A stretch of DNA of 42,671 bases from a virus. Taxonomy: Duplodnaviria; Heunggongvirae; Uroviricota; Caudoviricetes. Numbering within the stretch: the first letter of the stretch is position 1; each line of letters opens with the position of its first letter. Below the pieces are notes generated by a model. It ran no database searches and had not been told where the DNA came from. It worked only from the letters and a program-made list of their open reading frames with translations. The stretch lies in IMG/VR virus record IMGVR_UViG_2529293144_000007; one strand, given 5' to 3'. The translations under genes were made by a program, and so were the position numbers. Of the stretch, positions 2,891-6,288 are shown one piece after another.

Positions 2891-3640
2891 TCAGCTGATA
2901 CTGATACCTGCTGTGGATTTCTTCATCACCACAACCAGCAGATCGCTGATACTGGTTGTTGGTGTCCAGTTATTCGCTCCTGATGAAGATACGGTGAATG
3001 TCAGTGTCAGTGTCCCCTGTCCGGCAGGCATATCTATAACTGAGGAAAATACGCCCTGAGCATCCGTCGTGGACTGATTAAAAATCTCCTGACCATTGCG
3101 GGTCACTCTTAACCGGCAGGTTGAATACCAGTATGACTGTTGGTTATTACTGTTGAAATTCTCATGCTTACCACCGCGGAATAACACTGGCGGTATCATG
3201 ACCTGCCGGTCAAACTTCTGATCATCACTGATTCTTACCGTGATGGTGCCGCTGGCATAAGTGCTCGTGCGGGGGAAAGACTTGCTGACCGTTTTGACAA
3301 TATCGCCTTCAATCTGGTTGGCTGACAGTTTCCCCTTAATCTGACAGTTCTCATTAATCGTGACGTTGTTGAGCGTCCCGGAGTTCGCATTCACACTACC
3401 ACTGATATCCGCATTTTTAGCAGTCAGCTTTCCGTCCGGTGTCAGGGAAAATGCCGGTGGATTTCCACCGCTGGTAATGGTGGGGGCCGTCAGGCGTTTC
3501 AGGAACACGTCGTTCATGAATATCTGGTTGCCCTGCGCCACAAACATCGGCGTTTCATTCCCGTTTGCCGGGTCAATAAACGCGATACGGTTAGCGGCAA
3601 CCAGAAACTGGCTCAGTTTGCCTTCCTCCGTGTCCTCCAT
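2891..3640 (-). CDS. J: host specificity protein J, C-terminal receptor-binding portion, separated from the upstream part by a frameshift
   Basis: 249 aa beginning [33 protein letters not shown], matching the lambda J C-terminal region as recalled; overlaps the 891-aa ORF in a different frame. Confidence 0.8.
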
Positions 3641-6288
3641 ACTGAGGCCAATACCCGCGAATAATGTTTGCCGTCTTTGGTCTGCTCAATTTTGACAGCC
3701 CACATGGCATTCCATTTATCGTTGGCATCCTTCCACTCTTTCGAAAACTCATCCAGTCTGCTGGCGTTATCCTCCGTCAGATCTACTTTTTCCAGCAGCT
3801 CTTTACCGAGATGGGATTCGGTTATCTTGCCTTTGAAAAAATCCAGGTAACCTTCCGCATCATCGCTCGCCCGACCGACGGCCTCCACGAATGCCGATTT
3901 GCCAACGGTGTTCACACTGCGGATATAAAAGTAATAATCATGGCCCGGTTTGATATTGATACTGGCGGCTATCCAGTACAGCCCCGTGCCAAGGTAGCGG
4001 GCTGTGGTTTCAACCTGCCTGATATCGGTAATCCGCGTTTCCGAGAACCAGAACTCAAACTGTACCGTCGGATCATAAACCGCAAGATGCGGCGTGGCAG
4101 TTATCTGAAAATAGCCCGGCGTCAGCTCAATCTGTGACGGCGCTGCCGGTGCGGCAATCCGGAACGATACCGATGCCGGATCGCCCTGCTGTCCCCACGC
4201 ATTTACCGCCCGGACTGTCAGCCTGTAGTTCCCCAGCGCCAGTTGCCTGAAGCAGTATGTGGTTTCCGCCGTCCGGGCCGTGCTGACCAGCAGTTCACTG
4301 CCGTCATCCGCTGCCACGGTCAGGCGAAGCAGGAAGCTCACGCCCTTCACCACCTTCGGCGTGTCCCAGCGGGCCAGTACCTGATACTCCCCGCTGTCTG
4401 CGGTGACTTCGGCAGTCAGGTGCTGCACCGCTGGCGGCGTGACACCATTCACCGTGCCGCTCTGGTCGCCGTCAAAGTGCGCCCCGTTATCCACGATGGC
4501 TTCTTTTTCCGGTACATGCTGCACGGCAGTGATGGCATACGTGCCGTCATCGTTCTCACGGATACTCACACAGCGGAACAGGCGCTGGCGCAACGTCGGC
4601 AACTTCAGCCCCCACACGCTGTATTCTGCAACGTCGTCAGGAACACGGCTCACTTTTACCTTCACGCCGTCGGTGACGGACTGGACCTCCACGCTGACCG
4701 GATTGCCACTTCCGTCAACCAGGCTTATCAGCGTGGTACCGGAGGATGGCAGCGTGATTTCACGGTCGAGCGTCAGCGTCCGGGTCTGGCTGTTCACCGC
4801 CAGCACGCGCCCGCCGGTGCTGATACCGGCATAGTCATCATCGCAGATTTCAATGACATCGCCCGGTACATGGCGAAGCCCTTCAGCACCCACGCTGAAG
4901 TCCACGGTCTGCGTTTCCAGCAGTTCCGTTTTAATCAGCCACAGCCCGGCGCGGTGTGCCTGCCCCCGGCTGGTACAGCCAAAGGCATCCATCTTCGTGA
5001 CGTTACGACCGTAACGGGCAATGGCCTGCGTGTCCTCCACAAGCTCTGTTGCCGTCTCCCAGCCGTTGTTCGGGTCAATCCAGTTCACCTCAACGGCATT
5101 ATGGCGGTCCTTCAGGGCGCTGAAGCTGTAGCGGAACGGCGCGCCATCATCCGGCATCACCACATTACTGCGGTTATAGGTCCACACCTTATCCGACGGC
5201 CGGTCCTGCACGAACGTCAGCGTCTGCCCGTTCCATACCGGCATACAGCGCATCGCCGAGCAGAAATCACTGAGCACATCCCACGCCTTACGTTGTGTGG
5301 TCAGGTAAGCGTTACAGGTGATGCGCGGCTCCGTACCGCCAAAGCCGTCCGGCACCGACTGGTCGCAGTACTGGCCGATGACATACAGCGCCCATTTATC
5401 CACATCTGCCGCACCAAGACGTTTCCCCATGCCGTAGCGCGGGTGGGTCAGCATATCCCACAGACACCAGGCCATGTTGTTGCTGTATGCCGGTTTTAAC
5501 GTTCCGTCCCAGATACCGCTGTATTGTCGCGTCTGCGGGTTATAGTTCGACGGCACCTGCAGAATGCGCCCGCGAAGATGATAATTACGGCTCACCTGCT
5601 GGCTGCCGAACTGCTCCGAATCCACCTGCACGCCGACCAGTGCCGTGTTCGGGTAGCACTGTTTCACATCGATGATTTCGGTGTATGACGACCAGAGCGT
5701 TTTGTTCTGCAGCTGGTCTGTGGTGCTGTCCGGCGTCATCCTGCGCATCCGGATATTAAACGGGCGCGGCGGCAGGTTATCCACCACCACCGAGGCCAGA
5801 TACTGCGAGGTGGTTTTGCCCTTAATGGTGATGTCTTTTTCCGTCACCCAGCCACCGTTACGCTGTATCTGAACCAGCAGGCGGACTTCCGATGGATTCC
5901 TGTCCCCCTTTGAGGTGGTTTCCACCAGTGCCTGCACACCGAAGGTAAAGCGCAGACGGTCGATGTTTGCCGACGTGATGGTGCGGGTGATCGGCGTGTC
6001 ATATTTCACTTCCGTACCCAGCACAGTCTCGGAGCCGGAGGATTCAAAACCTTCCGGCGGTGTCTGCTCCTGCTCACCTGCCCGGAACACCACCGTGACG
6101 CCGGAGATGTTGGTATTCCCCTCACTGTCCAGCACCGGCGTACTGTTCAGCAGCACGCTTTTTAATCCATCCACCGGACCTTCAACCGGCCCTTCGCTGA
6201 TGGCATCAATCACACTCAGCAGCTGCGTGGATTTCAGGTTATCTTTCGCTTCGCGCGGGGTATGCCCCTTACTGCTGCCTTTACCCAT
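3613..6288 (-). CDS. J: host specificity protein J (central tail fibre), N-terminal 891 aa ending prematurely after ...KDGKHY
   Basis: Begins [24 protein letters not shown] and matches lambda J as recalled up to ...[13 protein letters not shown], then 21 out-of-frame codons and a stop. Confidence 0.9.

Follow-up and report, generated by a model that had tools for sequence, protein, structure and literature searches.

Gene J of this lambdoid prophage, which encodes the tip attachment/host specificity protein gpJ, is split into two open reading frames by the loss of a single G. Very probably, the lesion is an inherited loss-of-function mutation carried by one prophage sub-lineage, in which the prophage would be non-infectious but otherwise intact and probably inducible. 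Within the window, by which we mean the whole 42,671-nt stretch of DNA that was analyzed, the J interval comprises 3398 nt, as compared to 3399 nt in the intact allele (Table 1). Alignment to the 3399-nt gpJ allele of Escherichia coli strain 190 detected one indel only, a G missing at gene position 2629, and, beyond that indel, one substitution. The missing base belongs to codon 877 (GTC, Val) and maps between window positions 3661 and 3660, in agreement with the sequence-only reading, which had placed a single-nucleotide deletion splitting J near position 3660. In the window, 20 nt (TCGCGGGTATTGGCCTCAGT) separate CATTAT from ATGGAG, and the same alignment confirmed the earlier proposal that one added G restores GTC GCG GGT ATT GGC CTC AGT. 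With that G put back, a continuous 1132-aa J is obtained, while the seven residues VAGIGLS are missing from both pieces of the split gene. As the intact context at the lesion is TAT-G-TCG, the deleted base is a lone G outside any homopolymer, as had also been stated. The description of the first frame (ORF1) was only partly correct: its length is indeed 891 aa, but it does not stop immediately after KDGKHY, as 15 more out-of-frame codons follow.

Members of the lambda gpJ family are encoded by a single frame of approximately 1130 codons. In the window, this frame is broken at codon 877, and J is therefore a pseudogene of the family and not a functional member. Within the tail operon, J follows H, M, L, K and I and precedes lom and stf, which is the synteny of the family. 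The ORF1 product is identical to GenBank entry EMZ95593.1 from E. coli P0304816.1, and the window is identical to bases 3-42673 of the draft contig AQEM01000044.1 (GCA_000356565.1), which ends inside stf.

Table 1. Features of the split gene J and its surroundings (positions in the window).
Feature	Position	Strand	Basis or remark
Whole gene J (gpJ, tip attachment / host specificity protein), frameshift pseudogene	2891..6288	-	Alignment to strain 190, PGAP annotation of sister genomes, PDB 8IYK
ORF1, 891 aa, TGA at 3613-3615	3613..6288	-	J residues 1-876 plus 15-aa out-of-frame tail
Site of the 1-nt deletion (G)	3660..3661	-	Extra G in intact sisters
Stretch with both frames open, 73 nt	3613..3685	-	Sole place where a -1 shift could rescue J
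ORF2, 249 aa	2891..3640	-	J residues 884-1132; greater part of the beta-prism central straight fibre, plus the receptor-binding domain at the C-terminus
Substitution CGC>TGC, R679C in J	4254	-	Private to the window; C (Arg) in every other genome compared
Tail-tip genes I, K, L, M and tape measure gene H	6349..11736	-	Upstream of J, all open, normal lambda order
lom (2225-2824) and first 720 codons of stf (1-2160, cut by contig end)	1..2824	-	Downstream of J

The distribution of the deletion was then evaluated with a 60-nt query centred on the lesion, which was compared to complete E. coli genomes. Approximately 2,220 genomes were matched, and only six of them (AR436, AR_0374, 3985, MB165, ET300 and W150) matched at 60 of 60 positions; the remaining matches were to the 61-nt version or to more divergent ones, the G being kept in approximately 2,200 genomes. 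As ORF1 and ORF2 match one protein that is continuous in those approximately 2,200 genomes, the split is not a chance pattern. The two-frame arrangement is thus present in six of some 2,220 genomes, all belonging to one clade, with sources that include humans, poultry and a frog, and countries that include the USA, Cuba and China. The PGAP annotation labels gpJ as 'frameshifted' in all five deletion genomes inspected (all but AR_0374), and no relative combining the 20-nt segment with a continuous ORF was found. Besides the six complete genomes, at least 24 further contigs carry the deletion, among them short drafts and a metagenome scaffold. In its Arg679 version, the exact truncated product was found in 31 contigs from NCBI, ENA and Logan (42 index blocks), and the intact sister product in 70 contigs of the wider collection. 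Moreover, the deleted junction was present in each of the eight extra loci that were fetched (draft contigs of 37-74 kb and one metagenome scaffold), and the same deletion was altogether seen in more than 14 independently fetched loci.

When the window was compared base by base to eight relatives, the genomes with the deletion proved to be almost identical among themselves. Strains 190 (NZ_CP020520.1) and GN4741 (NZ_CM177112.1) are equally close: they are approximately 99.98% identical to the window over the aligned stretch (the whole window for GN4741, positions 2-37279 for strain 190), and their prophages lie at similar chromosomal coordinates. They differ from the window in keeping the G, and with it an intact 1132-aa J (WP_047661854.1), and in sharing a derived gpU substitution at window position 13354. 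The extra G at the lesion site is likewise found in the more distant AREA_497, used as outgroup, whose J is intact. Since this outgroup and all other genomes have an intact J, the intact form is ancestral and one deletion event suffices. As judged from these comparisons, the J deletion is a single inherited mutation in one prophage sub-lineage, and not a sequencing error.

One could argue that the real genome has the G and that only the draft assembly lost it, as the window makes up the opening 42.7 kb of a draft contig with its end inside stf. Moreover, relative to its closest complete genome, 3985 (NZ_CP103623.1), the window shows five aligned differences, plus window base 1 just outside the alignment, and all six private base differences of the window fall within 4.3 kb of the contig end; given this clustering, the contig-end stretch may hold consensus errors. 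However, six complete genomes originating from different laboratories, hosts and countries share this deletion, as do 8/8 additional loci, short-contig drafts and the metagenome scaffold included. The site is devoid of homopolymers, the deletion is not confined to one assembly or platform, and sisters that are identical elsewhere keep the G, so that the difference tracks lineage rather than sequencing platform. A base lost in assembly is therefore extremely unlikely, and a sequencing artefact is effectively excluded as the origin of the J deletion. The recurrence of the deletion in many independent assemblies also speaks strongly against read-level error, and the earlier view that the mutation is genuine was thereby strengthened.

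Despite the deletion, a functional J could still be produced by recoding, in which a programmed -1 ribosomal frameshift or transcriptional slippage would yield useful full-length protein. A -1 shift anywhere between window positions 3613 and 3685 would indeed generate a near-normal J (e.g., ...KHY-F-AGIGLS...), and -1 frameshifting at G/GT is used in lambdoid tail operons, which counts in favor of such a mechanism. Nevertheless, neither an X XXY YYZ slippery heptamer nor a homopolymer of at least five nucleotides was found in the 73-nt overlap, and the fold of the RNA downstream of the lesion is as stable as that of shuffled sequences (minimum free energy of -30 kcal/mol versus a shuffled mean of -30.1, z = 0.04), i.e., no stable stimulatory structure was found there. 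The arrangement is, in addition, limited to one recent clade, against approximately 2,200 relatives with a continuous ORF, and recoding is accordingly regarded as exceedingly improbable. A simple-sequence repeat, as expected of a phase-variable locus, is also absent from the site (context TAT(G)TCGCGG). A different possibility is that J works in two pieces, with ORF2 being made by coupling to ORF1 termination and its product joining the truncated hub non-covalently, in which case the phage would be infectious. ORF2 has its own ATG, located 25 nt upstream of the ORF1 stop and hence overlapping the ORF1 end, and both ORFs are called by gene callers. Moreover, hub and receptor-binding protein are separate polypeptides in other siphophages, e.g., T5. 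Also in favor of a two-piece J, the C-terminal part of gpJ from residue 713 onwards can fold and bind the receptor as a separate fragment (PMC11101478). On the other hand, no Shine-Dalgarno-like motif was found in the 20 nt upstream of the ORF2 ATG at position 3640, and while weak termination-reinitiation may take place at this ATG, there is nothing in its favor. The cut also lies inside a single conserved fibre domain (PF09327), with the loss of the seven residues mentioned above, and in the lambda model the signal is a twist that starts at the receptor-binding domain and reaches the helical shaft by way of the fibre, for which a continuous J chain would be needed. Furthermore, later disruptive lesions in tail genes of the clade suggest that the tail module is no longer maintained. 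Taken together, an infectious phage with a two-piece J is highly improbable. Phage vB_EcoS-569R4, which has two J CDSs, was rejected as a viable split-J precedent: its record is a 'partial genome', the split occurs at approximately aa 407, and ymfL is also split.

We then focused on the domains affected by the break. The intact sister allele aligns with lambda gpJ (PDB 8IYK) over residues 1-1131 with no length change, and contains all six Pfam domains of the protein, namely FNIII-A_GpJ, Phage-tail_3, Ig_J, Ig_J_second, Phage_Tail_Tip and Ig_GpJ_C. In the window, these six domains are shared out between the two frames: ORF1 contains the first four and only positions 3-34 of Phage_Tail_Tip, while ORF2 contains positions 41-138 of Phage_Tail_Tip together with Ig_GpJ_C. 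The break thus falls inside Phage_Tail_Tip (residues 846-972), and after the helical shaft, which in gpJ corresponds to residues 841-861 (PMC11101478). Truncated J keeps the hub domains, FNIII-1, FNIII-2 and the alpha-helical shaft, but has neither the beta-prism central fibre nor the receptor-binding domain at the C-terminus.

The severed module could be assigned to a receptor type by its similarity to characterized proteins. The ORF2 product is identical at 247 of 249 positions to the C-terminal 249 residues of PDB entry 9wca ('A8 gpJ 713'), and shares 99.2% identity with the C-terminal part of J from three phages of the phage collection (2H10, Turner and PhiR30_1), while the last 150 or so residues of J, i.e., the receptor-binding domain, diverge from the LamB-binding domain of lambda. 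A8 gpJ is a gpJ variant that occurs naturally in E. coli prophages and was used by Brodel et al. 2024 (PMC11338833; PDB 9wca/9wcb), and DNA delivery by A8 gpJ chimeras goes via OmpC, not via LamB (PMC11338833). Based on its identity to A8, OmpC is the most likely receptor of the J of this prophage, and the lost receptor-binding domain would be of the OmpC-targeting 'A8' type rather than of the lambda LamB type, which refines what had been read from the window alone. While A8 gpJ is a continuous functional protein, the same module is severed from the hub by the frameshift in the window.

In our proposed explanation, an ancestor of one mEp460/PhiR55-like E. coli prophage sub-lineage lost the G from codon 877, and translation of J would since then end after 876 correct and 15 wrong residues. 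The retained hub, two FNIII domains and alpha-helical shaft are the parts that build and close the tail tip, and, as tail assembly is nucleated by the hub part, which J still has, tailed particles are perhaps still assembled. According to the mechanism proposed for lambda, contact with the receptor forces the binding domains apart and puts a twist on the fibre, upon which the shaft flips, the FNIII strings come free and the tube opens (PMC11101478). As the signal in this model passes mechanically from the C-terminal domain up the fibre, virions of the mutant prophage would be expected neither to bind their porin receptor (most likely OmpC) via the central fibre nor to trigger DNA ejection. The prophage would probably still be inducible and lytic, with virions unable to trigger infection, and would become infectious only with an intact J provided in trans or by recombination. 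The earlier suggestion that the prophage is defective for adsorption can thus be narrowed: binding through the central fibre and the trigger for ejection are the functions predicted to be lost, while reversible attachment may persist, because the sister genomes have retained intact genes for the side tail fibres. In these genomes, the J junction segment also has a second match elsewhere (two places per record). It presumably represents a second J-like gene, which might complement the defect or repair J by recombination.

It is very unlikely that the split J is tolerated or even useful, with the deletion having been selected in a successful, globally spread E. coli clone instead of reflecting neutral decay. 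Such a scenario could take two forms. In one, the 249-aa fibre and receptor-binding fragment would be made by translational coupling and would rejoin the truncated hub. In the other, the inducible prophage would release particles that attach by their side fibres only and cannot inject, and these could serve as a lysis or tailocin-like weapon, or the prophage would be one that is unable to kill kin.

The remainder of the prophage was also inspected. In genome 3985, the region is a lambdoid prophage with an integrase, an immunity region of the ymfK/ymfT/ymfL type, replication genes, Q and a lysis cassette, followed by genes for terminase, portal and a protease-capsid fusion, by the tail genes Z, U, V, G, T, H, M, L, K, I and J, and then by lom, stf and tfa. 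Here, gpJ is the sole structural gene flagged as a pseudogene ('frameshifted') in this prophage, all other structural, lysis, regulatory and integration genes being annotated as intact. Over the late region, the nearest isolated phages are vB_EcoS-569R4, PhiR55_1, PhiR40_1 and mEp460, with approximately 97% identity. A PADLOC scan of the proteins of the neighboring island returned zero matches.

Some members of the clade carry additional tail-gene lesions. AR436 has an ISVsa5 inserted in gene T (window 11892-11900), with a second copy of the element near the integrase, while in ET300, gene K is frameshifted by the loss of one nucleotide (window 7343) and gene H is interrupted by a nonsense mutation (window 9789), although the two ET300 lesions could be assembly errors. 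Lesions of this kind were not found in the three intact-J relatives (190, GN4741 and AREA_497). This fits relaxed selection on the tail module, with numbers that are too small for a statistical claim. Extra K and I lesions apparent in two of the fetched loci (L012 and L013) were discarded: only the called gene lengths differ, and, as the DNA is identical to that of other clade members, the differences are gene-calling noise.

Comparison with known systems places this case among single-lesion prophages of the lambda type. Like lambda gpJ (UniProt P03749; PDB 8IYK, 8XCG, 8XCJ/8XCK), the protein of the intact sister allele has 1132 aa and the same Pfam series, the gene order H-M-L-K-I-J-lom-stf is alike, and the junction DNA is 96% identical to that of lambda; the window differs in the frame broken at codon 877 and in the divergent receptor-binding domain. 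A close parallel is the absence of side tail fibres in laboratory lambda PaPa, which results from a 1-nt deletion in stf (PMC11101478). There, as in the J of the window, a single-base frameshift splits a lambdoid tail fibre gene into two ORFs. However, the lesion in lambda PaPa is tolerated because it affects the accessory side fibres, whereas the one described here affects the central fibre, the decisive receptor-binding component.

The 'defective prophage pool' of E. coli O157 Sakai, which Asadulghani et al. are said to have described in 2009, reportedly comprises point-defective lambdoid prophages. Such E. coli prophages are likewise complete apart from one small disabling lesion in a morphogenesis gene and are inherited clonally and vertically; in principle, another lambdoid prophage present in the cell can rescue them. 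Moreover, De Paepe et al. 2014 (PMC3945230) showed that recombination allows temperate phages to pick up sequences from defective prophages. The lesion itself was already known, in that RefSeq labels it 'frameshifted' in sister genomes, and J is here an ordinary prophage pseudogene. Altogether, the case matches the well-known pattern of lambdoid prophages that are disabled by single small lesions and inherited clonally.

The J deletion has little import beyond annotation and opens no long-standing question. For annotation, it means that the 'phage tail family protein' EMZ95593.1 (891 aa) and the neighboring ORF of 249 aa are the two halves of one J pseudogene. The deletion also provides a clean clade marker that separates deletion genomes from their intact sisters, and the prophage, although otherwise complete, should count as defective for transmission. 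Finally, the near-identical pair formed by intact (190, GN4741) and broken (3985, MB165 and others) prophages could provide a ready control for examining what lambdoid particles without a central fibre are still capable of.

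Besides the loss of one G from the tail-tip gene J, other lesions were found in the prophage and in its close relatives among complete E. coli genomes. A small hypothetical gene of the early region (window 33492-33811, + strand) bears the annotation 'frameshifted' in all sister genomes, even where J is intact, and therefore this lesion is older than the J deletion. In strain AR436, the prophage region carries two insertions of ISVsa5, an IS4-like element (32132-33340 and 6198-7406 of that locus), with sites in window coordinates at 11892-11900 and about 36582-36591; one copy has landed in T, a tail assembly gene, and is flanked by a 9-bp target duplication, and the other lies directly outside the prophage integrase. 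Strain AR_0374 showed the same split match, together with the ISVsa5 transposase. Moreover, the tail genes of ET300 present two further disruptions, namely a 1-nt deletion in K (window 7343) and a nonsense mutation in the tape measure gene H (9789), which could represent further decay or assembly errors. In the window itself, the tail chaperone genes gpG and gpT (11708-12432, - strand) have the usual lambdoid layout, the one associated with a programmed -1 frameshift, and the pair looks normal.

Base comparison with the eight complete sister genomes identified six window positions that differ from all of them (1, 1580, 2393, 2403, 2429 and 4254), corresponding to base 1, K194T in the side tail fibre gene stf, T141K plus two synonymous changes in lom, and R679C in J. 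None of the six is more than 4.3 kb away from the end of the contig, and no private change was detected against these genomes in the remainder of the 42.7-kb window. Such clustering suggests either consensus errors originating from paralogous prophage copies at the end of a draft contig, or a small gene-conversion tract.

In the more distant intact-J relative AREA_497, J contains a dense patch of substitutions (window 3629-4414, about 10% divergence) limited to the FNIII-2, shaft and upper fibre region, a pattern typical of mosaic recombination. The G deletion is present in the metagenome scaffold ERZ28577276 on a more divergent background, with ten synonymous differences in ORF1 (the 5' part of J) and numerous differences in lom and I. 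This points to recombination of the deleted allele into a different background or, alternatively, to a chimeric scaffold. In the 'partial genome' record of phage vB_EcoS-569R4 (ON470598.1), J is annotated as two CDSs (30762-34257) split near residue 407, a lesion different from the one in the window. In this record ymfL is likewise in two pieces. The split J there may result from a sequencing error or from a defective induced prophage.

Coordinates of the tail chaperone genes and of the island genes in the window
Feature	Position	Strand	Context
gpG	12046-12432	-	Tail chaperone pair
gpT	11708-12037	-	Tail chaperone pair
P4-type integrase	37403-38674	+	Island
Response_reg_2 protein	39353-40969	-	Island; frameshifted according to PGAP in the inspected sister genomes having the island
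HEF_HK/HATPase_c protein, 572 aa	40953-42671	-	Island

The segment past the prophage integrase (window 36400-42671) is an island of its own, in which PADLOC returned no match. Its Response_reg_2 gene is marked as frameshifted by PGAP in every inspected sister genome having the island. The same slot is occupied in strain 190 by a P4-like satellite encoding HamA and a DEAD/DEAH helicase (Hachiman-like), and in AREA_497 by two very large hypothetical proteins. The slot beyond the prophage integrase thus has the look of a variable hotspot for satellites or defence systems.
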